Part shown: positions 2,533 to 64,000 of the stretch, piece by piece
Layout: every line of letters starts with the position of its first letter
Position numbering within the stretch: position 1 is the first letter of the stretch
Origin: a phage
Sequence record: NC_135728.1
Direction: 5' to 3' (one strand)
Length of the DNA: 64,000 nt
The notes under the pieces: generated by a model
Told to the model about the DNA's origin: nothing
Seen by the model: only the letters and a program-made list of their open reading frames with translations
The model's database searches: none
Program-made: the position numbers and the translations under genes

Positions 2533-5500
2533 TATTCAACACTCTCCATCATAAGTTGGGTATCTGTCAGCGCAGAGTTCCAAACTCTTATGTCCTTAAT
2601 ATGACCAAACAAATGTCTTTCTCCTGTTGCCGTTTGACCACCGATACGGATGAAAGCTCCTCCTGCCAGGAACTCCCAAGAAGACTGTGTTTCAGTGCTC
2701 ACCAGTCCGTTAGCAAAAGAGCAAGTTTTACCGTCTTCTTTTATCCTGAACCCCATCTTCAGTTTACGCGCTTTAGCCATCTCGTAGACACGTCTGTTTG
2801 ACCCTCCAATATCGCAGTATGGATACCCATCCTCTGCAATATTTGTTGCAGAACCAAACCCGAGAATAAAAGCTGCGCTCGTCTGGTGTCCTTCTGTGTC
2901 TATAACCCTAGGGGCTGCGTTAGGAGCTTTGCCCCAACCTCTCCAGTTAGCATCCACAGTAGCGGCGATAGTGAACGGTCTAGGTGCTAAGTTATCCGTC
3001 ATCGGGAATTTGCAAAGGTCTGCCGCTCTAGTTACAGGTGAAGATCCTGTGGGAATAAACGAGGACTCGCAAGAACCTAACTCAAATTGAGGTATTGCAA
3101 CATCAACCCAATCCCCTACAACATGCTGAGCACCTTCAGGTGGAGAAATCTGGAACTGGCACCCGATATTCTTGTCAGAGGCCACTGCCTCAAACGTAGC
3201 GGCAATCCTTACCCAAGCAGGTCCGGCTGTTTGCCATCTCTCAGCTTTTACTTTAATTCTCCCAGCTGCACCACCTGTTGTTTTAACTTCAAGTGTTGAC
3301 AGGTTAACATAAGCGTCACCTTGGAATACTGTGGTGGATCCGTCATACATGTCGAATCTTACACGTAATCTCTGGTTCGCTTTACCTCCCCTTGCAATAA
3401 TAGACCCAGTACAGAATTTCTCAGCACCTGTCACATCGGCACCTCTGGTGGCTGGAACTGTAGCAAGGTTTAACGCTGTTGTTTCCACACCGGATGCAGT
3501 GTTTACTGTAAATCTTGCACCTTTTGTGCCGTTGGTGTTTGTTACAGTACCACCAACAGTAATCTGTTGACTGGCTCCCCATTTACTAGGGTCTTCACTG
3601 TTAAGCATTAGGTTTGTCCTTTGCCCTTCAATAAGCAGACCATCTCTTTCAAACCGAGGATGATCGTTCTGAGCAGTAACCATCACACCGCGTTTAGAAA
3701 AGTATGTTGCTGTAGAAGGTCTGGAGAATACCATCTCTCCCTCACCAAGTGCAGGTTTTAAGTTGGAGGTCAAAGGTAACCAAAGATCAGGCATAACTGG
3801 GGCGGTTGTGCTTTCCGGGAAGCTTGTTCTCTTCCAAGGACTCCAAGCCATTCCACTACCAGTGTTATTATAATACCTTTCCCATGTTCCACCAAGGTAC
3901 ATCTTGTAGATCTGAATACAGCCCGTGCCCTCGTTAGCAGAGTTTCTAAGCACAATCAGCGTACCAGCCATCTGCTGTCCAGGCGGGTAATGTCTTTCAG
4001 CTGTAGCGTTAGCATTCGCCTCTTGATGGTAGATACCTTCACGATCTGCTTTATAATCGTTAAGGTCGCTATTCCCCAGTCCTTGACCACGGTGCTGAAT
4101 AACCTTGTTCCACGCTCTGTGATTTCCCTGCTCTATGGAACGGGTATATAGCTGATCTAATCGACCTGCTATCTGGAAAGCATAGTTCCCAGAGAATGCC
4201 ACAGACAACCCGCCAACAACCATCGAACCTTCAGGCCCGTTAACATTACCAGCCATTATTTTAGAAGGGTTGTTATTCCCGAACTGGTTGTTCCAGTCTG
4301 CACCTGTGTGGCATACAAAACCACCAGGAGCTGAGAAAGTGCCATCTTTGTTGAAGTTGTAGAATCTATGGGATGAACCAACAACATCTCTAACAATGAC
4401 CTGACCAGCCTCTGGGGTAGACCTGAACTCTGCCTGACCTTTGAGACCAGCACCATTACCGCATTTAGAGGTAAATGTACCGTTAGTTAAGTCCTCTGTC
4501 CCATCTGATGCACACTGGAATCCTGCATTAGAGAATAAAGCCTTTCTAGGGCTGCCGTAGCACAAATAGTCAAGACCGTCTGCCCATAGCTCGACTTTTG
4601 GCATATTCATTTTGCTCATCACAGCATAGCGTTCAGCAGTGCCTATATAGTGCCACTGTGTACCGCCGCCAGTGTAGAATCCAGAGGTACCTTTGAAGTC
4701 AACAATAGGTCTGGTGTTGGTATTGTTATCTCCAAGAACAGCAAGATTCAAATCTGCCGACTGGAGAGGTGCAACAAACTTAACCCCGTCCTGATTGTTT
4801 GTTACAGAACCAACCTGGTAGTCTTGTTCTTTGGTAAACACCTCTAAAACATTTCTACTTGCGTATATGCTGACAGGGAAAGCACGCGCCTCTGCATAGA
4901 AAGCAACATATTCTTGTTTACCCCTTGTTGGAGCAACCATCCCAAGAATTGCTTTTTCATTCTGGTAGAAATTTACTACTCCGTAGAAAGAGTCCCCTCT
5001 ATCTGTCCACCCACCAGTTCTATAATGACACTGTAAGGTAGCACAGTTCATGGGGTCACCACCAGATGACGACCTAGTAACTATGGTAATATCGGTGCCA
5101 GTAGCTGGAGCATAATACGGATCTGTTCTAACTATAATTGGGTAGTATTTCCCATCTTCCATCCCTGCGGTTCTTGGCAGCGTTAAGAAATCTTTTACGC
5201 CTGCAGCTATAGGAACTCTAAACAGATTCTGAGCCTCTGCCAAAGTTGTAGCCCCAGTACCACCTGCGGCTTGCGGTAAAGGTTCCCACTTGGCCTTCCG
5301 GTTGTTATAAACACCCCATTCCAGAGTGCCGTTACCGGATTCATCCATCCCGCCATCCCAGATGACCATCTTGGCGGCTTTCTTGGATCCCCAGAAGCCT
5401 CTTTCTGCTCCTGAACTACGGATCCACTCTCCGAGTCCCCAGTTTGTCAGCTGACCAGTAAGATCCCCAACCTGCATGTATTTAGGGCAGTCTAGCACGC

Positions 5501-39586: not shown

Positions 39587-40057
39587 ATGAAACTTGATAA
39601 AAATGTTCAACGAAAAGCTTTCTTGGATATGATCGCATATTCGGAAGGCACAGATAATGGTAGGCAACCCACTAAGGATCGGGGATACGATGTCATAGTT
39701 GGTGGCAAGCTGTTTAGCGATTACAGCAAGCATCCAGGTGTGTACGTTAAGCTAAATGCTAAACTTACCTCCTCCGCTGCTGGTCGTTACCAGGTTTTGG
39801 AGAAGTTTGCTAAACACTACATGGAACAGTTAGGATTGCCAGATTTTGGCCCTGCCAGTCAGGACAAGATTGCGTTGCAACTGATCCGTGAGTGCAAGGC
39901 TCTCGCCGACATTGACGAAGGGCGTATCCACGAGGCTATCCATAAATGCCGTTCCCGCTGGGCTTCGTTACCTGGTGCTGGATATGGTCAGCATGAACAG
40001 AAGATCGAGAAGTTGATCGAGGTGTTTAAAAAGGCAGGCGGTGTTGTCCTTGATTGA
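39587..40057 (+). CDS. endolysin, lambda R-type lytic transglycosylase
   Basis: Near-colinear similarity to phage lambda R as recalled (QRKAFLDM..SEGTDNGRQ..GYDVIVGG..AGRYQ..WASLPGAGYGQ). Confidence 0.9.
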   Translation: MKLDKNVQRKAFLDMIAYSEGTDNGRQPTKDRGYDVIVGGKLFSDYSKHPGVYVKLNAKLTSSAAGRYQVLEKFAKHYMEQLGLPDFGPASQDKIALQLIRECKALADIDEGRIHEAIHKCRSRWASLPGAGYGQHEQKIEKLIEVFKKAGGVVLD

Positions 40058-55968: not shown

Positions 55969-56119
55969 GCATAAGGGGTCGAAATGCGGAAATCTATCAA
56001 GAAAATCAAGATAAGATTGTTGGTACTGAAGCGTAAGTATAAAAAGTTATACGGCTTCATTAAATGGACTTTTATAGGTTTATCTTGAATAGAAGCACAC
56101 CACAGAAGAGAGGTTCCTT

Positions 56120-56356
56120 ATGATAGGTGTCTGTGTAAAAGCTAACAGATGGTTTACATTCGGTAAGGATTACGAAATTATCTTTCATTCGGACAGAGCC
56201 ACAACAGTAGAAAGCGATGATGGGTGCTACTGGTTCGTTAGTTACCATGGTGATGGGTATTATAGATCTACTGATTCCAGAGGGGAAGAAGCTGTTTTCT
56301 TAGATAGAGCTTATTGTGGGCCTGAATATCCCTACCTCAAAGAGGATAAGGAATGA
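56120..56356 (+). CDS. hypothetical protein (78 aa)
   Basis: ORF track; start-stop overlaps nrdG. Confidence 0.45.
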   Translation: MIGVCVKANRWFTFGKDYEIIFHSDRATTVESDDGCYWFVSYHGDGYYRSTDSRGEEAVFLDRAYCGPEYPYLKEDKE

Positions 56357-56826
56357 ATGTTGTTAATATTATAGAGTGTAGCATGGTTGACGGCCCAGGC
56401 ATTAGGACAACGGTGTTCTGTTCTGGTTGCCCACATCACTGTGTCGGTTGCCAAAACAAAAGTGTTTGGTCACCAGCTAAAGGTGAACCGTTAACAAATG
56501 ACACTATTGAGAGTATACTTCACTCTATAGAGCCGAAACATATTACTGGCGTTACATTATGCGGTGGCGAACCTTTAGCGCCTTACAATATCGATGGTAT
56601 GTACTCGATCATTCGCGCTATCCGTGAACGCTTCGGCAACACAAAAACTATCTGGGTGTACACAGGGTATTTGTTTGAAGAGGTTCCCGATCACATTAAA
56701 GATAGTGTCGATTACATTATGGATGGTAAGTACGAAAAAGATAACCCTACCAAAAAAACCTTCAGAGGTAGTGATAACCAAAGAATGTTTAAAAAGGTAG
56801 CAGGCGGTTGGGTTCAGGTTGACTAA
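56353..56826 (+). CDS. nrdG: anaerobic ribonucleotide reductase activating protein (radical SAM)
   Basis: N-terminal CSGCPHHCVGC cysteine cluster; follows nrdD. Confidence 0.85.
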   Translation: MNVVNIIECSMVDGPGIRTTVFCSGCPHHCVGCQNKSVWSPAKGEPLTNDTIESILHSIEPKHITGVTLCGGEPLAPYNIDGMYSIIRAIRERFGNTKTIWVYTGYLFEEVPDHIKDSVDYIMDGKYEKDNPTKKTFRGSDNQRMFKKVAGGWVQVD

Positions 56827-56829
56827 TTG

Positions 56830-56859
56830 TTGACAAAGCTTTGTTAAGTTGGTTATAAT
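56830..56859 (+). promoter_or_regulatory. sigma70-like promoter
   Basis: TTGACA (56830-56835), 17-18 bp spacer, TTATAAT; followed by RBS GAGGAGG and ATG at 56883. Confidence 0.6.
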
Positions 56860-56882
56860 TAGGAAAGCAGAGGAGGTGCCAA

Positions 56883-56996
56883 ATGGCTAAAAAAGCCTTG
56901 AAGAAGGCGTACAAAAAAGAAATTGCGCTTGAGCTTAAGAAAAAACACAAGCGTGAAAAGAAACATCATGAGGATGAAGAGGGGGTGCAACAGTGA
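56883..56996 (+). CDS. small highly basic protein (37 aa)
   Basis: Not in ORF track (short); strong promoter and RBS upstream; MAKKALKKAYKKEIALELKKKHKREKKHHEDEEGVQQ. Confidence 0.45.
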   Translation: MAKKALKKAYKKEIALELKKKHKREKKHHEDEEGVQQ

Positions 56997-57343
56997 CACA
57001 AGAACGTATCGATTTGGCTAATAAGTTTGTAGATCTCATTTTGCCACGGTTAGTTACTCAACATGCAGACGCTATTTCTACTAATCTTGATGGCTTACGC
57101 CTAATGCTGAATCGCACAGATGACCCTCGTATTCGGGCTGATTTAGAAGCCTCTGCCAACAAACTGGAAAAGTTCTTGCAAGTAGACACGCAAGAAGCCT
57201 TACACAAGATTATGGTGGAAGGTTTCTCTAAAGAATTTACCATTAAAGAGCTTAAGGAGCTGATCCACCAAGAAGAGATGAATATCCGAGTTCAGGCTGT
57301 TGCAAGCAGCATGGAAGCGGCTATTGAAAAACTGTTGCAGTAA
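56993..57343 (+). CDS. hypothetical protein (116 aa)
   Basis: ORF track (GTG start overlapping upstream stop). Confidence 0.45.
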   Translation: MTQERIDLANKFVDLILPRLVTQHADAISTNLDGLRLMLNRTDDPRIRADLEASANKLEKFLQVDTQEALHKIMVEGFSKEFTIKELKELIHQEEMNIRVQAVASSMEAAIEKLLQ

Positions 57344-57381
57344 AAGTACTTGACACATCTCAATCTGAAAGGAGTCCCAAC

Positions 57382-58170
57382 ATGGGTCGAGCTAAAGAAA
57401 CAAAACGCATGCGTGATGAAGCTAGAGAGGCTCGCAAATCTGATCGCCTGCGTAAGGCTGCTGAGAAATTTGCTGACGAACGAGAGCACACAGCTCCAGC
57501 TCTCCGACCAATGAATAAAAAGCAGCAAAAGTATCTTGATTATCTAGGGTCACGTAAGATTATTATTGTAAACGGTGTGTTTGGATCCGGTAAGACATTC
57601 ATGGCATCTGCATATGCAGGTGATCTTCTGCGTAAGAACGAGATTGATAAGATCATTGTTGCACGTCCTTACGTTCAGACAGGAAAGACTTCAGGATTTA
57701 AACCTGGAAATGCAATGCAGAAACTGTGGCCCTATCTTAGAAGCATGATGGACACGATTTGTCGTCGTGTTGGCAAAGGTGCTTTTGCCGCAATGCTGGG
57801 AGACGGTCAGAACAGCCGTATCGAGATTTGTGAGGTTGAAAGCATTCGTGGTCGTAGTTTCGATGAGCGATGCTTTGTCCTGATTGACGAGGCACAGCAA
57901 ACTAACCCTGAAGAAATGTTGTCAATTATCACAAGGATCTCTGATCAGGCCACTCTTGTAATTATGGGAGATAATAGTCAACGTGACATCCCTGGTAAAT
58001 CTGGCCTTGCATGGGTGACAGATTTCTTTACTCGTCATCCAGATCCTGAGGTTGGAATGATCAGCTTTGATAGTCCAGACGATGTCGTTCGTTCCGGGTT
58101 GGGTCGTCAGATTGCACTCAATCTTATTGAGGATCGTGCAAATCATATTTGGACCCCTGTTTCCGAGTAA
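57382..58170 (+). CDS. phoH: PhoH-like ATPase
   Basis: Walker A GVFGSGKTF and Walker B-like FVLIDEAQ in PhoH arrangement. Confidence 0.8.
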   Translation: MGRAKETKRMRDEAREARKSDRLRKAAEKFADEREHTAPALRPMNKKQQKYLDYLGSRKIIIVNGVFGSGKTFMASAYAGDLLRKNEIDKIIVARPYVQTGKTSGFKPGNAMQKLWPYLRSMMDTICRRVGKGAFAAMLGDGQNSRIEICEVESIRGRSFDERCFVLIDEAQQTNPEEMLSIITRISDQATLVIMGDNSQRDIPGKSGLAWVTDFFTRHPDPEVGMISFDSPDDVVRSGLGRQIALNLIEDRANHIWTPVSE

Positions 58171-58214
58171 CACAGAAGGGTGGTTATTCCACCCTTAGAT
58201 ATCTAAAACAGTTG

Positions 58215-58243
58215 TTGACAAATAGGTAAGCTTTAGATATTAT
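58215..58243 (+). promoter_or_regulatory. sigma70-like promoter
   Basis: TTGACA (58215-58220), 17-bp spacer, TATTAT (58238-58243); RBS AGGAGAAGGAG before ATG 58269. Confidence 0.6.
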
Positions 58244-58268
58244 TATCGGACAAGGAGAAGGAGATAGT

Positions 58269-58580
58269 ATGGCTACAGTACAAGAGAAACTGAATAAAAT
58301 ATACTGCCTGTTTGTCTATAACGGCGAGACAATTCTGGCATATAAAGGATCCAAGAATGTATGGATCAAGGACAGTGGTGGTAATATAATCAACTTAGCG
58401 TTGCTACGTGAGCGCCGACACAGATTCTTTATCGAGTCTCGGATTATTGAAAGCAGCACCTGCTACAGAACAGGCGATAAAGTAATTGTTGACAATGATA
58501 CGTGGTATGTGGTAGACTGGCAATCATTGAGCTGTGATGCTTCTGACAATCGTAAGTATTCTATAGTGATTGCTAAATAA
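58269..58580 (+). CDS. hypothetical protein (103 aa)
   Basis: ORF track with promoter and RBS. Confidence 0.5.
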   Translation: MATVQEKLNKIYCLFVYNGETILAYKGSKNVWIKDSGGNIINLALLRERRHRFFIESRIIESSTCYRTGDKVIVDNDTWYVVDWQSLSCDASDNRKYSIVIAK

Positions 58581-58639
58581 AGGTAAATGTGAATCAGGTT
58601 TAATAAATAGCTTTCAACTTCCAATATTAAGGATTTCTC

Positions 58640-59689
58640 ATGAATTTAACACCTCGCAGCACCATGGTACACGGCATGAAAGAAAAACAGAACGGTTTCG
58701 AACCTATGAGTAATAAAATGTTTGGTATGCCAGGTGGTATTATGGAAACATACAGCTACCCAACACCAGTTGTTGACCACGTTCTTTATATCGACGATTT
58801 GGAAGACTTACAAGATCATATGTCTCGTCTACAGACGATCCGTATGGCTCAGCCGGAAGAAAGCATTCGGGTGATCATCAATAGCCCTGGGGGTTGCGTG
58901 CACATTGCAATGGCTTATCTGCAGGCATTCCGTGAGTCTCAGGCAAGCGTTGTTGCACATGCTGAAGGGATGTGCTGCTCTGCGGGAACAATCTTATGGC
59001 TGGGTTGCAAAGAGCGCACTGTTGCTCCGGACACAGAGTTTATGTTCCACTACTACCAAGGTGGCACCTATGGTAACGGTGTGAACATGAATACCCAGAT
59101 CAACTACTGGAAGAAACGTTTTGAACGCCTGATCGAAAAATACTACGGTGGGGTGTTAACAGAAGATGAGATCGCATCCATCACAGCTGGCGGTGAAGTG
59201 TGGTTAGATGGAGAAGAGCTGGCATCTAGAACTGGTGCTATCATTCTGGACGATGAAAACATTCAGCGCATTCAGAATGGACAGAAACCGAAAAAGCTTT
59301 TGGCAAAAAGTGATGAAGAAGGTGTGCTAGGCGAAGCAGGCCTGCCAGAGATTCACCAATGCACATCTCTGGACGAGCTGGTTCATGCTGTTGAGTCTGC
59401 AAAAGCAAATGGTATGAAAGATGATGTTCACACTGTGTTCCTGAATCTGCAGATGGAAAGTGGCGAGACAGTCAGGATCGCCCTGGGTGAAATTACTTCA
59501 GAAGATCTGCAGCGATTCTCTGTCGTCGAACTTCAGGATATTCTGTCTCAATTGAAGACTACTCTGAACGGCGGTGAAGAGGTTAAGGTGAAAGACAAGA
59601 CCCGCAAGCGTCTGATGGACAATATCATTAAAACAGCAAAAGAGCTCAATGAAAAAATCCTGGGTTCAGGAATTGTCGAAGAAGCTTAA
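58640..59689 (+). CDS. ClpP-like serine peptidase with acidic C-terminal extension
   Basis: ClpP-type motifs INSPGG and GMCCSAGT (Ser nucleophile context). Confidence 0.55.
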   Translation: MNLTPRSTMVHGMKEKQNGFEPMSNKMFGMPGGIMETYSYPTPVVDHVLYIDDLEDLQDHMSRLQTIRMAQPEESIRVIINSPGGCVHIAMAYLQAFRESQASVVAHAEGMCCSAGTILWLGCKERTVAPDTEFMFHYYQGGTYGNGVNMNTQINYWKKRFERLIEKYYGGVLTEDEIASITAGGEVWLDGEELASRTGAIILDDENIQRIQNGQKPKKLLAKSDEEGVLGEAGLPEIHQCTSLDELVHAVESAKANGMKDDVHTVFLNLQMESGETVRIALGEITSEDLQRFSVVELQDILSQLKTTLNGGEEVKVKDKTRKRLMDNIIKTAKELNEKILGSGIVEEA

Positions 59690-59700
59690 ACATTAATTCT

Positions 59701-59727
59701 AAAGCCCTCTTCGGAGGGCTTTTATGA
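59701..59727 (+). terminator. rho-independent terminator
   Basis: aaagccctcttcggagggcttt hairpin with UUCG loop followed by T-run. Confidence 0.6.
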
Positions 59728-59740
59728 TCTGGAGATTTGC

Positions 59741-60274
59741 ATGACTTGTGCTAGAAAACCTGATGAACAACGTAACGCATACGATGAGTATGTGACACCG
59801 GAGTGGTGTGCAGAAGGGCTGTATGACCTTATTCCGTTCCCAGAGGACTGGACCTACTTAGAGCCTTGCAGGAATAGTGCCTCAGGTGTGTTCTACTCCC
59901 GTATGCCGTTAGGATCTGCATGGGGAGAAATCCAAGAAGGTGTTGACTATCTGAATACAGAATACAACCATGTTGACTGTATTATCACCAACCCACCATA
60001 CAGTCTGGCCCGTGAGTTTGTAGACAAGGCGTTGAAAGATGCTGACGTAGTTATTATGCTTTTGCGTCTTAATTTTCTGGAAAGCAAAGCCAGATTTGAA
60101 TGGTGGCTTGATAATGCACCTACCACTGTGATCACAATATCTAAGCGTCCATCATTTCAATCAAATGGTAGAACTGACGGGCAAGCATATGCATATTTTG
60201 TGTGGGATAAGAAAAACCGTTTAGACTTGCCGCCATTTATGTGGTTGGCACCCCCAGAGGTAGACCTGAAATGA
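59741..60274 (+). CDS. DNA methyltransferase (amino-methyltransferase, NPPY motif)
   Basis: IITNPPYS catalytic motif; second methyltransferase in the window. Confidence 0.55.
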   Translation: MTCARKPDEQRNAYDEYVTPEWCAEGLYDLIPFPEDWTYLEPCRNSASGVFYSRMPLGSAWGEIQEGVDYLNTEYNHVDCIITNPPYSLAREFVDKALKDADVVIMLLRLNFLESKARFEWWLDNAPTTVITISKRPSFQSNGRTDGQAYAYFVWDKKNRLDLPPFMWLAPPEVDLK

Positions 60275-60555
60275 AAATGAGTGCTAAGGACAAATTACAC
60301 CAACTGGCGCTAAAACGTCCTGTAACGCTTCCTGACGAGCTTAACTCTATTTATGATGCGATTGTAGGGGAGATACAAAATAAAGCGTTAGCAGGCTTTC
60401 TGGGATGCGGATTTTCGATAAATCTACCCTCGCATCTCTCAGATTACTTCCCGCATATTGTTGGGGATTTGAGGGCAGGAGGTCTGCAGGTAGATGTTGT
60501 TGGCATCTCTCCAGAGAAAAATAACACGGTTGCCTACTTGACAGTAACTTGGTAG
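60271..60555 (+). CDS. hypothetical protein (start adjusted to ATGA overlap with upstream stop)
   Basis: ORF track 60241-60555; internal Met at 60271 overlaps the methyltransferase stop. Confidence 0.4.
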   Translation: MKMSAKDKLHQLALKRPVTLPDELNSIYDAIVGEIQNKALAGFLGCGFSINLPSHLSDYFPHIVGDLRAGGLQVDVVGISPEKNNTVAYLTVTW

Positions 60556-60566
60556 TTGTGTATTGT
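60538..60566 (+). promoter_or_regulatory. sigma70-like promoter
   Basis: TTGACA (60538-60543), 17-bp spacer, TATTGT. Confidence 0.45.
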
Positions 60567-60829
60567 TGTTATCAACAAGGGGGTCATTTATGTACAAGTC
60601 ATTTTCAATTTACTCAAGACAGGCGAAACATTACACAGAGATTCTAATCACTCAGAAAAAATCTGTAGAAGGTGAGTGGGAATATCATCATAAAATGTTG
60701 CGTCCAGACTGGGTTTTTGATAGGCTTATTGCTATGATCCCTCTTGGAGAAGTATACCCTCTGACAGGTCATAGGGATGCTTGGGATTTAATTGATTACA
60801 TAGATTCATTTAAGGAGCCTAGTGTATGA
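60563..60829 (+). CDS. hypothetical protein (88 aa)
   Basis: ORF track. Confidence 0.4.
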   Translation: MLLSTRGSFMYKSFSIYSRQAKHYTEILITQKKSVEGEWEYHHKMLRPDWVFDRLIAMIPLGEVYPLTGHRDAWDLIDYIDSFKEPSV

Positions 60830-61224
60830 AGATTGAGATCACTAAAGAAGGTAAGAAAGTGTCTGGCGATTATGCAACAGTAATTCGGGATGTAATGTTC
60901 GAAGTAACCCAGACTGGTACGTCTAAGGTTGGTCAAACGGTAAGTGTGCAAGGTAATATTGCCGCAGGTGAAAAGATAATCATCGTGATCAAAGGACAAG
61001 ACCCTGTGGAAGGAACAGTGGGCCGAGGAGGCTACCTGTGTATTTCTGAAGAACCTCGTATGCTGGTTGCTGATAACTCCACAGGTAAAAAGCGGGTATG
61101 TAACACGGACGAGGTGATGATTATCTATCCAGTCAACCCAGATGATCCGGCAACATGGATTGTGGGAAATGAAATCTTCTCTTTAGAAGAGTTATCCTTC
61201 CCAGCTCCGCGCTCTGTTCAGTAA
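60826..61224 (+). CDS. hypothetical protein (132 aa)
   Basis: ORF track; start-stop overlap. Confidence 0.45.
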   Translation: MKIEITKEGKKVSGDYATVIRDVMFEVTQTGTSKVGQTVSVQGNIAAGEKIIIVIKGQDPVEGTVGRGGYLCISEEPRMLVADNSTGKKRVCNTDEVMIIYPVNPDDPATWIVGNEIFSLEELSFPAPRSVQ

Positions 61225-61263
61225 TAATTTATCTTACCAGGGACGGTAGAAGTAGGAGGTAGC

Positions 61264-61497
61264 ATGAAAGTTAAATTTCTTACAGATTTAGGGTACCCTT
61301 CCTTGGTTGACTGTGTTGGTAAAATTGTGGAAGCAAAACGGCTATCTGCAAACGAGAATGTTGTCATGGTTAAGGGAAAAGATTTATTAGCTGCAGGTGC
61401 AGAGTCTGGCAGGGTCTCTCCTGACTATACGTATTACCTGTCTTTAAGTAATCTACCAGAACGAGGCGGCAAAGGCCTTGAAGTTGTGGAGGAGTGA
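61264..61497 (+). CDS. hypothetical protein (77 aa)
   Basis: ORF track; RBS AGGAGG. Confidence 0.45.
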   Translation: MKVKFLTDLGYPSLVDCVGKIVEAKRLSANENVVMVKGKDLLAAGAESGRVSPDYTYYLSLSNLPERGGKGLEVVEE

Positions 61498-62027
61498 CAG
61501 GTATGCTTCTGATTAACTGGGAAGACCTCTATGGGGACAAAGACCCTGTTGCGTTTGTTGATCGTAGATGGAGATATACTGAAGAACAACTGGCTGCAAA
61601 AAATTTAACTGCAAAACGCAGAAAGATCATCCAGTGCAAGTATAAATACGCACAGTTTGCTGCAAAAGTGTCTCCCCAAATCGAGAGCTTTGTGCTTAAA
61701 TTGTATGACGAGTACCTCAAATTCAAACTGGATTTTGTACAGGTATACCGTGCACAGATACGCCCAGATACCAGCATTTGTAGATGGAAGGTTGTTTGTG
61801 ACGGTAAAGATTTGCCACTCAGCTTGACAATTGAGCAGCGTTGGGGGTATCATGAGTGCGGTCTGTATGAGACTTGGGATGTCATTGTAGATCCTGCTAA
61901 GTACCTGAACACAGAGGAGCTGGAATATATCAATAAGGTTATTCTCGATATGTTTTTCAGATACACCTGTGAAAACTCTGAGAAAGAACGGGATAATTTT
62001 CTTGACACCATCAGCAACCATCTGTAG
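61494..62027 (+). CDS. hypothetical protein (177 aa)
   Basis: ORF track. Confidence 0.45.
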   Translation: MTGMLLINWEDLYGDKDPVAFVDRRWRYTEEQLAAKNLTAKRRKIIQCKYKYAQFAAKVSPQIESFVLKLYDEYLKFKLDFVQVYRAQIRPDTSICRWKVVCDGKDLPLSLTIEQRWGYHECGLYETWDVIVDPAKYLNTEELEYINKVILDMFFRYTCENSEKERDNFLDTISNHL

Positions 62028-62057
62028 TATACAATTTAACCTACAAAGGGAGGGCTA

Positions 62058-62294
62058 ATGAGTATAAATGTTGTGCTAATAGGTTACCTGGTAATAGCAG
62101 TTATAACAGCGGTATTCTTGACAGGTATATGCATCGTGTCTAGACGAAGGGTGAAGTTTGATGATTTTATCACCATCATCACTGCTGCACCTTTTTGGCC
62201 TATTGTTATCTTCATCGTAATAATGTGCCTAGTTGATTACTACAAGAATATCCGTAAGGAGAAAAAGGAGAGTAGGGATGGAGACCGCGCCTAA
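62058..62294 (+). CDS. small membrane protein with two predicted transmembrane segments (holin candidate)
   Basis: Two hydrophobic stretches (VVLIGYLVIAVITAVFLTGICIV and ITIITAAPFWPIVIFIVIMCLV) and charged C-terminus. Confidence 0.4.
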   Translation: MSINVVLIGYLVIAVITAVFLTGICIVSRRRVKFDDFITIITAAPFWPIVIFIVIMCLVDYYKNIRKEKKESRDGDRA

Positions 62295-62430
62295 AACTGT
62301 TTATACTGTTCTTAAAGAGATTGCGTTCTACGCAGATCTTAGCCAGGCACCTTTATGGGAAAAGAGCATGTATTTAAAATGGTGCGTTAATTTATGGAGA
62401 CCTTCCAGTGTTTCAAGCCATGTTTATTGA
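62278..62430 (+). CDS. hypothetical small protein (50 aa)
   Basis: Internal Met of ORF 62233-62430 preceded by strong RBS (AAGGAGAGTAGGG). Confidence 0.3.
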   Translation: METAPKTVYTVLKEIAFYADLSQAPLWEKSMYLKWCVNLWRPSSVSSHVY

Positions 62431-62513
62431 GATGCTATCTGGGGTATTGTTACTGGTAGCCATCTTAGGTGGTGCAGTTCTGATGTATAACTATCTTGAA
62501 AAAGGAGACAGCA

Positions 62514-62699
62514 ATGGCAAAAAATAAATCTTTAGAGCAGGCTGAAAACCTTCTCCACGAGCTAGTAAAGGAGTGGAAAGTTGAATACTCAGATTTTAAT
62601 GCACGAGAGGGTGAAGATTATTGGCCTACGGAGCGCTCAGAGGGCGAATGGTATCAAGATTTTATAGAGTGGTTATATCAGACGTGTGATGAGGGGTGA
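62514..62699 (+). CDS. hypothetical protein (61 aa; start at second Met with RBS)
   Basis: ORF track 62496-62699; AAGGAGA RBS precedes the ATG at 62514. Confidence 0.4.
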   Translation: MAKNKSLEQAENLLHELVKEWKVEYSDFNAREGEDYWPTERSEGEWYQDFIEWLYQTCDEG

Positions 62700-63157
62700 C
62701 GATGTTTGTTAAATATGTAAAAACGTGCCTCAACAGTCTTGGCAGAGAGCATTGGTACACCTTACTTGAAAAAGGAGAAATTTTAACAAAATCTGGAAAG
62801 ATAACTTTGATACCCTTGGACGATAAAGACCCGTCACTCCTTGTCATAGATGATTACGTTACAGGTGTGTCGTACGAGGTCTCTGTGGAGAGGTTAATAC
62901 GCAGATCTGGAGGTCCTTATGACCGAAGAGAGTATGTTTTCGATTCTGTTACAGAGAAGGAAGATCCGTCTCTAATGTTCAGGATGGTAATCAGAGATAT
63001 GAGGTCATCTATAGACAGGATCGTAAAGGACATTAAGGAGCCTTTTAGGGTAAAAGTTAAGAAGTTTTTTGATTCTAAGATTAACATACTTGCCGTTGTG
63101 CTAGGCGTAATTCAACTTCTGTTAATTTTGCACTATCTTGAACTGTTGTTTAAGTAG
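62696..63157 (+). CDS. hypothetical protein (153 aa), C-terminal hydrophobic segment
   Basis: ORF track. Confidence 0.45.
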   Translation: MTMFVKYVKTCLNSLGREHWYTLLEKGEILTKSGKITLIPLDDKDPSLLVIDDYVTGVSYEVSVERLIRRSGGPYDRREYVFDSVTEKEDPSLMFRMVIRDMRSSIDRIVKDIKEPFRVKVKKFFDSKINILAVVLGVIQLLLILHYLELLFK

Positions 63158-63217
63158 TGTGCAATAAGGCACAAAGGATGTGCCATAACTAAATAAACTA
63201 AGAAAGAGGTAGAGAGA

Positions 63218-63565
63218 ATGCCAAAGATTAAATCGATATTAATGTGGGTAGCTGTTGTGGCTTTTGTAGGATACTGGACTTGGGAAACTGAATTAAAAGA
63301 TATCGGATATACCAGTCTTGAGAACAAGGCGTGCATTGGCATAACCGATGCATTCAGGCAAAATGCTATGGATCACGAATGTGTCGATGCAGACATAGAT
63401 GAGAAACTGTCTAAGGACAAAGACTTCTACCACGGGTATGCTTTGCTTGATAGTGGAGACACTGTAGAGTTCTGGTCGTGGTTCCGTAAAGATGGAACAA
63501 TAAAAACAGCAGTAAAGATCTCTAACAAAGAGTTAATGCTGTTGCAGCAGAAGGAGGCTCAATGA
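63218..63565 (+). CDS. hypothetical protein (115 aa) with N-terminal transmembrane/signal-anchor segment
   Basis: ORF track; hydrophobic N-terminus ILMWVAVVAFVGYW. Confidence 0.45.
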   Translation: MPKIKSILMWVAVVAFVGYWTWETELKDIGYTSLENKACIGITDAFRQNAMDHECVDADIDEKLSKDKDFYHGYALLDSGDTVEFWSWFRKDGTIKTAVKISNKELMLLQQKEAQ

Positions 63566-63849
63566 TCTGGATATCCTATGCTGATGGCACCATGCTGTAT
63601 ACTGCAGGTACCAGATATGAGGTTCAGGAGAACGATAAAAAATTTATCGTAAGAACATTTGACAAGGACGACAACCTTTTGCTAGAATTAACTTACAAGG
63701 TTGGGGATGTATCTAGCATCCAGTTGGATTGCGGTCATAAAGATAACCCACTCAAGAAACCTGGGGTAGGTAAAGCTTCAGAAAAACGCCTGTCTCGTAT
63801 TGCAGAAAGCGTTTCTGCACAAAAATCTAAGAAGGGGACTAGAAAATGA
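63562..63849 (+). CDS. hypothetical protein (95 aa)
   Basis: ORF track. Confidence 0.4.
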   Translation: MIWISYADGTMLYTAGTRYEVQENDKKFIVRTFDKDDNLLLELTYKVGDVSSIQLDCGHKDNPLKKPGVGKASEKRLSRIAESVSAQKSKKGTRK

Positions 63850-64000
63850 AAAACTTACGTTTTAACACTTATTACTACAACACATTGAATGATTTGTATT
63901 ATATTGTTCGAAGTAAAAGTCCTGAAACAGTCCTATTCTGCCGCGAACCTTTCAAAGGGGAGGAAGTAGAGTCTGAGATGAATGTTAGCCATATTACCTC
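63846..64000 (+). CDS. hypothetical protein, 5' part only (runs off window end)
   Basis: ATG at 63846 overlapping the upstream stop; open frame to the window end. Confidence 0.3.
   Translation, partial: MKNLRFNTYYYNTLNDLYYIVRSKSPETVLFCREPFKGEEVESEMNVSHIT

Follow-up and report, generated by a model that had tools for sequence, protein, structure and literature searches.

Twelve conserved, mostly dispensable small genes beside an adenine methyltransferase gene in an rV5-like Vequintavirus

Introduction

Phage T4 encodes Imm, Sp and RI, small non-essential early membrane proteins involved in superinfection exclusion and lysis inhibition. Antiholins of the T4 RI type consist of an N-terminal anchor and a periplasmic domain, and S21 is a class II holin. 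In phage Mu, the small regulator gene com overlaps the DNA-modification gene mom, and uncontrolled expression of the modification gene is harmful.

The locus described here, twelve small genes designated O1 to O12, likewise encodes small single- and double-pass membrane proteins among the non-essential genes of a large virulent myovirus. However, these have no sequence similarity to the T4 proteins, the anchor of O10 is C-terminal, a difference from Imm, Sp and RI, and a shared function is putative. As in com–mom, a small-protein gene (O1) overlaps a DNA-modification enzyme gene, and the small gene outweighs the enzyme for fitness. In contrast to com–mom, the gene order is reversed, with the enzyme gene first and O1 second; O1 has neither a zinc-finger signature nor a likeness to solved structures, and regulation by O1 is putative. 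Phages related to rV5 rank among those isolated most often from Escherichia coli and serve in cocktails for biocontrol and therapy, and such small genes make up about one fifth of their genomes.

Identity and extent of the gene run

The window, a stretch of 64,000 nucleotides (NC_135728.1), stems from an rV5-like Vequintavirus of E. coli. Based on gene calls in relatives and our own reading of the sequence, twelve genes are located on the + strand at positions 60271–63849, where the initial annotation had counted nine open reading frames (ORFs). The twelve genes are orthologues of rV5 ORF124–135 and correspond gene for gene to rv5_gp119 to rv5_gp130; the nucleotide identity of the region with 119 Vequintavirus records was 92–97%. 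The run of small genes comes after genes for PhoH, a ClpP-like protease and an N6-adenine methyltransferase (MT).

59741–60274, + strand: MT, N6-adenine methyltransferase with NPPY motif, 177 aa; phrog_799, E 8e-67
60271–60555, + strand: O1 (rV5 ORF124, bas54_0169), 94 aa, soluble alpha/beta protein; ATGA overlap with the MT stop
60590–60829, + strand: O2 (ORF125), 79 aa, soluble
60826–61224, + strand: O3 (ORF126), 132 aa, soluble; ATGA overlap with O2
61264–61497, + strand: O4 (ORF127), 77 aa, soluble
61503–62027, + strand: O5 (ORF128), 174 aa, soluble; labelled 'putative glycosidase' in BASEL
62058–62294, + strand: O6 (ORF129), 78 aa, two transmembrane segments; 'putative holin' in the rV5 paper
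62278–62430, + strand: O7 (ORF130), 50 aa; overlaps both neighbouring genes
62408–62527, + strand: O8 (ORF131), 39 aa, single-pass membrane protein, GTG start
62514–62699, + strand: O9 (ORF132), 61 aa, acidic, pI 4.3
62702–63157, + strand: O10 (ORF133), 151 aa, C-terminal transmembrane anchor
63218–63565, + strand: O11 (ORF134), 115 aa, N-terminal transmembrane anchor
63562–63849, + strand: O12 (ORF135), 95 aa, basic, soluble; ATGA overlap with O11

On the + strand, ORFs with an ATG start and a length of 50 aa or more numbered eleven and covered 93% of the interval, whereas 500 shuffles gave 1.6 such ORFs and a coverage of 8%; with the twelve-gene set, the coding density was 95%. The size range given initially (50–177 aa) was nearly correct, except that the smallest gene encodes 39 aa and that 177 aa is valid for O5 only with GTG at 61494 as the start. 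Overlapping stop and start codons, also part of that description, were present at six junctions including that with MT: ATGA overlaps at MT/O1, O2/O3 and O11/O12, and longer overlaps at O6/O7 (17 nt), O7/O8 (23 nt) and O8/O9 (14 nt). Of the other junctions in the block, two are almost seamless, with 5 and 2 nt between the genes, and four show spacings of 30–60 nt. The remaining structural statements held: Shine–Dalgarno-like sequences precede all twelve genes, given an O8 start at GTG 62408 (ATG in three relatives), transmembrane segments were found in four proteins (O6, O8, O10 and O11), and enzymatic motifs were found in none of the twelve with Pfam and NCBIfam.

The end of the block at 63849 was set by the window edge, which cuts the next small gene, itself ATGA-coupled to O12:

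63846–64000, + strand: start of the next small gene (rV5 ORF136)

In rV5, the small genes extend eight further genes past the O12 equivalent, and the interval represents the first twelve genes in a run of about twenty.

Transcription context

Two upstream features frame the transcription of the block.

58215–58243, + strand: sigma-70-type promoter-like site, TTGACA-17-TATTAT, 11/12; equivalent of rV5 promoter P121
59701–59722, + strand: hairpin with a 9 bp stem and UUCG loop, then UUUUAU, directly past the ClpP-like gene

The former is the closest strong promoter-like site upstream of the block. The hairpin (−14.7 kcal/mol, z = −2.3) has a terminator annotation in phage Gotham and is likely a leaky intrinsic terminator. 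No promoter-like site was seen between the hairpin and the MT start, and no late-type motif was found in the intergenic regions of the block. The block is part of the rightward non-structural transcription unit and follows consensus sigma-70-type promoters; its position makes early timing plausible. No transcriptome of any Vequintavirus was found.

Conservation and selection

All twelve genes were under purifying selection (dN/dS 0.003–0.32, dS 0.12–0.38). The ORFs were intact across 12 sampled relatives with two exceptions, APECc02, which has an indel where O8 meets O9, and Bas54, which carries a deletion, and the block was syntenic in 113 of 119 genomes. Compared with the orthologues in rV5 (ORF124–135), Bas49 (0165–0176) and Bas54 (0161–0169), the order, sizes, overlaps and transmembrane predictions were the same. 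Four divergent IMG/VR contigs (ClpP 61% identical) retained the order MT-O1-O2-O3-O4-O5-O6-x-O8-O9-O10-O11 with matching sizes and transmembrane positions, and protein identity in the sister lineage was 27–67%. Conservation, the lack of which was initially named as speaking against the block, was found in more than 110 Vequintavirus genomes and in the sister lineage. Judged by gene order, the block appears to be stably syntenic and not a hypervariable or swap-prone island.

Other Vequintavirus genomes showed allelic differences only. The window phage has the common O5–O7 allele, and its O3 allele class, one of two with a protein identity of about 85% between them, is shared with BP9 and YP-6. 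Divergent alleles are known for O5–O7, including a second O5 allele within the genus (about 50% identical) and a 43-aa variant of O7, whose slot is occupied by an unrelated 57-aa ORF in the sister lineage; O10–O12 can be lost. The fastest-evolving genes were O5, O6 and O7 (dN/dS about 0.3). O8 and O9 were under strong purifying selection (dN/dS about 0.05), which is unusual for arms-race genes. Homologues of single genes were also observed further afield: O2 has one in a Mydovirus-like Klebsiella phage (35% identity), O4 is 67% identical in the sister lineage, and O9 is conserved and precedes O10 in Mydovirus and Seunavirus, with one small gene between them in Mydovirus.

Dispensability and overall organization

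In published transposon sequencing of Bas54, 88–95% of the TA sites in O2–O9 were hit and these genes were called non-essential on K-12, while O10–O12 are naturally deleted in this viable phage. Eleven of the twelve genes, all but O1, are dispensable in at least one viable phage, which fits accessory, host-directed functions. None of O1–O9 was conditionally required on the uropathogenic isolate CFE311 versus K-12 (all q ≥0.89); this conditional test comprises one wild host and covers O1–O9, as Bas54 lacks O10–O12.

The block is a real, dense run of conserved small genes, most of them dispensable. On balance, these probably fall into three sets and do not form one machine. O1, cytoplasmic and translationally coupled to the methyltransferase, would constitute the first set. 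The second would comprise O2–O5, O7, O9 and O12 as condition-specific soluble factors, which may bind host proteins rather than catalyse reactions. The third would consist of O6, O8, O10 and O11 as inner-membrane proteins with a role in the envelope, where they might contribute to superinfection exclusion or to the timing of lysis; predicted topology suggests this envelope role, and essential holin or virion parts are unlikely among them. The block has already been catalogued and annotated, and its genes are ordinary accessory genes with one interesting lead.

O1 and the adenine methyltransferase

The MT gene lies outside the block as initially delimited; it precedes O1 and is coupled to it. 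MT matched EcoRI_methylase and Dam in Pfam, both weakly, and had a dN/dS of 0.009. O1 was almost invariant (dN/dS 0.003) and present in 189 phage records across Vequintavirinae. Its AlphaFold2 model had a pLDDT of 90; no fold match was found with Foldseek and no solved-structure sequence match in the PDB, nor was a partner or target of O1 found.

In Bas54, 8 of the 19 TA sites of O1 were hit, with mean counts of 1.8 versus 190–1100 in neighbouring genes. The non-essential MT gene was hit at 33 of 34 sites, the counts in O1 being about 100-fold lower. O1 was important for fitness in the reference library, on K-12 BW25113 and on CFE311, non-conditionally between the latter two, and is the sole member of the block whose loss cripples the phage. 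Since O1 was needed in every reported condition, it behaves unlike a host-specific inhibitor.

O1 overlaps or abuts the MT gene in the examined genomes of three genera, including a Mydovirus-like Klebsiella phage and Henunavirus Hena1. On one divergent metagenomic contig (L021), an unrelated D12-class Dam methyltransferase gene (PF02086, E 4e-37) occupies the slot of MT and likewise overlaps an O1-like gene. Two properties of a pair of an enzyme and its control or antidote were observed: the genes overlap and always occur together in the genomes examined, and in Bas54 loss of the small gene is harmful while loss of the enzyme is harmless. O1 may thus work with or on the methyltransferase, either controlling the enzyme or offsetting harm from its activity. 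We infer such a functional link tentatively, as a possibility somewhat short of even. In the other reading, O1 would have an independent core function and merely be co-located with the methyltransferase. Their adjacency could simply reflect synteny, as ClpP and O2 are equally conserved neighbours in most lineages, and the transposon data fit both an O1 that offsets MT and an O1 that is independently important. A speculative and rather unlikely proposal is that O1 founds a novel family of small proteins that partner with adenine methyltransferases of phages and are required to control or survive the activity of the enzyme, for instance by curbing over-methylation or shielding methylated phage DNA; this family would be conserved across Vequintavirinae and retained even after a swap of the methyltransferase for an unrelated D12-class enzyme. 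The MT–O1 pair is the one lead in the block worth bench time, the fold of O1 being confident yet unmatched.

Alternative readings of the block

Small size and a lack of database matches are all that would favour chance open frames or decaying remnants without function, and we give this explanation practically no credence. It is refuted by purifying selection on 12 of 12 genes, by frames conserved in the sister lineage at 27–67% protein identity and by an ORF coverage far above that of shuffled sequence, and O1 has a fitness phenotype. The genes are real, conserved, of unknown function and devoid of enzymatic domains. The initial annotation proposed host takeover or anti-defence, a role that is plausible for the block, but existing tests give anti-defence no support. 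Searches with Pfam, NCBIfam, PADLOC, PDB sequences, AlphaFold2 and Foldseek revealed neither an enzymatic domain nor a known anti-defence domain. That several of these proteins inhibit bacterial immune systems and are produced early so as to disarm the host is, in our view, unlikely. Such inhibitors would agree with small, domain-less proteins that are dispensable on K-12, with the fast evolution (dN/dS about 0.3) and divergent alleles of O5, O6 and O7 within the genus, with the small and very acidic O9 and with the loss of O10–O12 in one isolate. However, O1–O9 were never conditionally required on CFE311, and in the Bas54 screen, the only genome-wide test of conditional essentiality for a Vequintavirus, anti-defence genes were located elsewhere (bas54_0063, bas54_0140 and bas54_0108). 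Vequintavirinae have also been reported to be exceptionally susceptible to restriction-modification systems, without effective protection against them. Synteny over genus-level divergence is further at odds with a swap-prone island, and no protein of the block matched any chain in the PDB, where the anti-defence proteins solved so far are included.

The membrane proteins could instead form a lysis cassette, with O6 as the holin and O8, O10 and O11 as antiholins or lysis regulators, which we regard as improbable. Their transmembrane predictions (C-terminal in O10, N-terminal in O11) agree with the rV5 table. O6 has the shape of class II holins such as S21 in its size (78 aa), two transmembrane segments (near residues 5–21 and 43–59) and charged C-terminal tail (KNIRKEKKESRDGDRA), and O11, with an N-terminal anchor and a domain of ~90 aa with two cysteines that is predicted to be periplasmic, has the layout of a T4 RI-type antiholin. 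In contrast to such holins, O6 is non-essential (17 of 19 TA sites hit in Bas54), whereas endolysin, both spanins and the T4 and Bas37 holins show no insertions in the same data sets. O6 is also remote from its would-be partners, the endolysin gene being 22 kb distant (39587–40057) and the spanins heading the terminase operon, and it matches no Pfam holin family; the BASEL annotation gives 'putative holin' to another gene, bas54_0115. Apart from its shape, O6 was thus rejected as a holin by essentiality, adjacency to endolysin and spanins, and family membership. Still less probable is a virion structural role of O10, which would place morphogenesis genes in the block. O10 matches phrog_7821 (E 1.9e-67), which bears the name 'virion structural protein', has relatives across the subfamily at about 30% identity, and its rV5 orthologue ORF133 is listed in the rV5 paper as 'structural protein (MS evidence)' with 15.9% coverage. 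This MS evidence, however, comprises two single-spectrum non-tryptic matches, CDQREYVFDSVTERDHPSL and LLLIL, the latter of five residues; Bas54 is viable without the gene, which is located away from the structural module, has no late-type motif upstream and encodes a protein that ends in a membrane anchor.

Public labels of O5 and O10

O10 carries the public labels 'virion structural protein' and 'HNH homing endonuclease'. For the latter, O10 had no Pfam or NCBIfam match, and a profile of its relatives found no PDB nuclease. The glycosidase label of O5 was likewise rejected, as O5 had no Pfam, NCBIfam or PDB sequence match. Its AlphaFold2 model, of modest confidence (pLDDT 63), gave only weak NTF2/SnoaL-like matches with query TM-scores ≤0.28, and no partner, target or fold relative of O5 was found. 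The structure prediction and Foldseek comparison suggested initially, run on O1 and O5, thus yielded no fold relative for either protein. Four public labels (holin, virion structural protein, HNH endonuclease and glycosidase) are unfounded, and recognizing this limits the spread of wrong annotations.

Gene content and genomic context

The block at 60271–63849 on the + strand lies in the non-structural unit and is most likely an assemblage of several kinds of conserved accessory gene. It held twelve small genes, here called O1 to O12, whose counterparts in phage rV5 are ORF124–135 (locus tags rv5_gp119 to rv5_gp130).

Genes of the block and two upstream comparison genes, with pooled dN/dS
58640-59689, ClpP-like gene, dN/dS 0.04
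59741-60274, N6-adenine methyltransferase gene (MT), 177 aa, dN/dS 0.009
60271-60555, + strand, O1, 94 aa, dN/dS 0.003
60590-60829, + strand, O2, 79 aa, dN/dS 0.08
60826-61224, + strand, O3, 132 aa, dN/dS 0.13
61264-61497, + strand, O4, 77 aa, dN/dS 0.11
61503-62027, + strand, O5, 174 aa, dN/dS 0.32
62058-62294, + strand, O6, 78 aa, dN/dS 0.32
62278-62430, + strand, O7, 50 aa, dN/dS 0.30
62408-62527, + strand, O8, 39 aa, GTG start, dN/dS 0.05
62514-62699, + strand, O9, 61 aa, dN/dS 0.04
62702-63157, + strand, O10, 151 aa, dN/dS 0.18
63218-63565, + strand, O11, 115 aa, dN/dS 0.10
63562-63849, + strand, O12, 95 aa, dN/dS 0.11

The initial annotation had described nine small ORFs with overlapping stop and start codons, good ribosome-binding sites and, in several, transmembrane segments. 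The run of small genes was recovered with twelve members instead of nine. Stop and start codons overlapped at MT/O1, O2/O3, O6/O7, O7/O8, O8/O9 and O11/O12 and not at the other junctions, where the spacing was 5 nt (O4/O5), 2 nt (O9/O10) or 30–60 nt (the remaining four); the O12 stop overlapped the start of the next gene too. A Shine-Dalgarno-like sequence preceded all twelve starts. Transmembrane segments were indeed predicted in O6 (two), O8 (one), O10 (one, C-terminal) and O11 (one, N-terminal), identical to the predictions in the supplementary table of the rV5 paper (PMC3606486). ATG-started ORFs of at least 50 aa numbered 11 and covered 93% of the + strand of the block, compared with 1.6 ORFs and 8% in shuffled sequences (n = 500). 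The proposed block end at 63849 was dictated by the nearby window edge, and in rV5 the small-gene run goes on for eight further genes, until the promoter ahead of a RaiA-like gene. Directly 3′ of the O10 stop, a 6-bp GC-rich hairpin without a T-run was observed (63168–63184, GGCACA-AAGGA-TGTGCC; −9.2 kcal/mol, not significant against shuffles, z = −1.6).

The region 59700–64000 matched 119 phage records at 90–97% nucleotide identity, 113 of them with at least 80% coverage, and a more sensitive DNA search found nothing outside the same 119. Nearly all were Escherichia phages of the genus Vequintavirus (rV5-like myoviruses, ~137 kb), with phage BP9 as the top match (97%). The block is real but already catalogued. 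Its sequences occur in >100 public genomes, and nine of the twelve genes were included in a genome-wide screen that has been published. Eighteen GenBank 'Campylobacter phage' records (MG0656xx, host Campylobacter jejuni) were 92–95% identical to the region; their host label looks doubtful.

Conservation and selection

In a comparison of the window with twelve relatives, all block ORFs were intact barring three kinds of exception. Phage APECc02 had an indel at the O8/O9 junction, phage MaxBurger (Bas54) had a 1,855-bp deletion, and three phages had divergent alleles of O5–O7. In these three (YP-6, O157 typing phage 4 and SYGMH1; loci L006–L008), O5, O6 and O7 were replaced jointly over the equivalent of 61503–62430. 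The second allele group showed ~50–60% protein identity and the flanking genes were 93–98% identical, so that the replacement looks like a recombination cassette. The Bas54 deletion (around position 5461 of locus L005, window position 62732 onward) took away all of O10 past codon 10 together with O11, O12 and three or four small genes beyond them, and left a viable phage.

A sister lineage of four IMG/VR contigs (118–141 kb; ClpP-like protein 61% identical) kept the order MT-O1-O2-O3-O4-O5-O6-(unrelated small ORF)-O8-O9-O10-O11. Gene sizes, the overlaps between genes and the placement of transmembrane segments agreed with the window, and protein identities ranged from 27% (O5) to 67% (O4). The initial annotation was to fall if the ORFs were not conserved; they were conserved, since gene order, sizes and overlaps are kept in this lineage. 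O3–O8 and O11 were detected in Vequintavirus and the sister lineage only, save possible distant counterparts in a more divergent contig (L021), and O12 in Vequintavirus only, the sister-lineage loci stopping short of its position. O10 was found in 170 phage records, at ~30% identity beyond the genus. A Mydovirus-like Klebsiella phage carried ClpP-MT-O1-O2 and, beyond a ~6-kb stretch occupied by other genes, counterparts of O9 and O10; O9-like and O10-like genes also lay near each other in Proteus phage Mydo and Seunavirus SPLA5a.

Promoters and timing

In rV5, genes 82–163 form a single rightward transcription unit containing DNA-metabolism genes; sigma-70-type promoters occur genome-wide and a T4-late-like motif upstream of structural genes only (PMC3606486 and its supplementary gene table). 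The following promoter-like sites were found here.

56830, sigma-70 consensus site, 12/12, equal to rV5 promoter P118
58215, sigma-70 consensus site, 11/12, equal to rV5 promoter P121
60538, weaker promoter candidate just ahead of O2
62002, weaker promoter candidate just ahead of O6

A strong hairpin was located 3′ of the ClpP-like gene. Since no promoter-like site was found between this hairpin and the methyltransferase gene, read-through probably carries transcription into the block. No match to the late-type motif occurred in the block intergenic regions, and ten of its eleven near-matches, all on the − strand, fell in the structural half of the window. No transcriptome for the rV5-like group was found in the literature; it is reasonable to infer an early timing.

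Function searches and structure models

Profile searches of all twelve proteins against Pfam, NCBIfam and PADLOC gave nothing above threshold, in line with the reported lack of recognisable enzymatic motifs. Strong PHROGs matches were to families of unknown function only, except that O10 hit phrog_7821 ('virion structural protein'). PDB sequence searches (single proteins, and profiles for O1 and O10) returned noise, bar a tau-like stretch in O12, and Rfam gave no RNA family over 56000–64000. In a set of 5.8 billion proteins, O1 homologues formed one cluster and O5 homologues three; a viral-contig scan with O5 gave no hits, nor did scans from two remote relatives of O1.

Structure prediction with Foldseek comparison, as suggested by the initial annotation, was run for O1 and O5 and yielded models for both, with no significant match. 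The O5 AlphaFold2 model was mediocre (pLDDT 63), with helices against a four-stranded antiparallel sheet, and matched NTF2/SnoaL-like folds only weakly (query TM-scores ≤0.28). O12 residues 41–75 (63682–63786) resembled a single microtubule-binding repeat of tau. Along the pattern D[VL]S.[IV]Q..CG.KDN....PG.G, 11 of 22 residues were identical to repeat R2, and the stretch was nearly invariant across all 12 orthologues. With phmmer against PDB, E was ~0.002 for single-repeat tau chains and 7e-9 solely for an engineered four-repeat construct; the likeness is probably due to chance or convergence.

Transposon-insertion sequencing of Bas54

By transposon-insertion sequencing of Bas54 (HIDEN-SEQ; bioRxiv 10.1101/2025.11.20.689424, Extended Data Table 8), the genes from bas54_0161 (O9) to bas54_0168 (O2) were classed non-essential, 88–95% of their TA sites having been hit. 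The methyltransferase gene bas54_0170 was also non-essential (33/34 TA sites). O1 (bas54_0169) was 'intermediate' (8/19), and its mean counts in the competition assay were 1.8 with K-12 as host and 0.5 with the uropathogenic wild isolate CFE311, against 190–1100 for neighbouring genes. The orthologue of the ClpP-like gene was 'intermediate' as well (28/44), and the conserved ClpP-MT-O1 trio thus comprises two fitness genes flanking a dispensable enzyme gene. Within the block, O1 alone had a fitness phenotype. The HIDEN-SEQ transposon carries no terminator and its authors argue against widespread polar effects (bioRxiv 10.1101/2025.11.20.689424); as to polarity behind the O1 defect, all block genes downstream of O1 are dispensable.

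None of O1–O9 was conditionally depleted between K-12 and CFE311 (q ≥0.89), and the anti-defence or conditional genes of Bas54 (bas54_0063, bas54_0140 and bas54_0108) lie elsewhere in the genome (bioRxiv 10.1101/2025.11.20.689424). In sheets Data S6/S7 of Extended Data Table 8, the sheet for K-12 against CFE303, a second wild isolate, shows the CFE311 command line. Its rows, where compared, equalled the CFE311 numbers, so that the conditional comparison covers one wild host, CFE311. Small coupled genes with host-directed roles, as initially proposed, are a reasonable reading. For the more specific host-takeover or anti-defence role no positive evidence was found, and some evidence speaks against it. 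The seven small soluble proteins would probably bind host components under conditions absent on laboratory hosts.

O1 and the methyltransferase

A tblastn search located O1 in 189 phage records; those from Klebsiella, Salmonella, Cronobacter, Erwinia and Proteus phages showed 36–45% identity. It was nearly invariant in the genus, with at least 99% protein identity in 104 of the 189 records, though dS was 0.21. An exhaustive HMMER search of 1.84 billion representative proteins gave nine matches. Eight, O1-sized or shorter and unnamed, were kept, and the ninth, a 3,795-aa repeat protein, was excluded. The eight relatives shared the motif PHI[IV]GDLRxGG..VD[VI]...[IL]TW, and the AlphaFold2 model from their alignment was confident (pLDDT 90, pTM 0.71; helix, helix, strand, helix, strand, strand). 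Foldseek of this model against PDB gave nothing significant (best E 0.05, TM 0.46, generic ferredoxin-like domains), and the viral structure library BFVD returned uncharacterised phage proteins only.

Everywhere the pair was examined, the O1 start lay inside the methyltransferase gene or exactly where that gene ended. In the Mydovirus-like Klebsiella phage K54_rec3 (L020, 2429–3224) and Erwinia phage Hena1 (Henunavirus; L022, 1981–2773), the methyltransferase ORF overran the O1 start by ~50 codons in another frame. Of the full-length O1 ORF, public annotation of K54_rec3 retains only the C-terminal 49 aa, and that of Hena1 lacks the gene altogether. In L021 (IMG/VR contig 3300045988_163358, 136 kb; region 1599–2770), the slot between the ClpP-like and O1-like genes was occupied by a 301-aa D12-class Dam methyltransferase (PF02086, E 4e-37). 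BLASTP detected no similarity between it and the 177-aa enzyme of the window (E 2.9), and its gene overlapped the O1-like gene by 31 nt.

A losable or swappable enzyme beside an indispensable small gene fits a control or antidote relationship; simple positional conservation fits equally. O1 matters for phage yield and may be functionally tied to the methyltransferase. Inhibition of type IV (methylation-dependent) restriction was set aside as the role of O1, because depletion of its mutants was evident already in the reference library and did not differ between K-12 and CFE311, a pattern unlike that of the Bas37 McrBC inhibitor (bioRxiv 10.1101/2025.11.20.689424).

Public labels of block genes

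A role at the envelope is probable for the four inner-membrane proteins, which are most likely neither the essential holin nor virion parts. The label 'putative holin' for O6 (rV5 Table S3) has topology as its sole basis and fails on essentiality: in the transposon data, insertions were tolerated in O6 as well as in bas54_0115, the gene that BASEL names 'putative holin', whereas none were recovered in the endolysin, both spanins and the T4 and Bas37 holins (bioRxiv 10.1101/2025.11.20.689424). O11 and O12 were rejected as spanins, which are already annotated at the terminase operon and essential. 'Putative glycosidase' for O5 (BASEL records) found no support from sequence (Pfam, PDB) or model, and no HNH domain (Pfam, PDB profile search) was found in O10, an 'HNH homing endonuclease' in several records.

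The O10 label 'virion structural protein' derives from the rV5 paper, where gp133 was called 'one of the predominant proteins' with 15.9% coverage (PMC3606486). According to supplementary Table S5 of that paper, the evidence consists of two non-tryptic peptides, each matched by a single spectrum: CDQREYVFDSVTERDHPSL at XCorr 2.54 and, at XCorr 1.90, the pentapeptide LLLIL. O10 is absent in viable Bas54, has a C-terminal membrane anchor and lies outside the structural module; a structural role is unlikely. The label, as 'virion structural protein (MS evidence)', has spread to phrog_7821 and many GenBank records.
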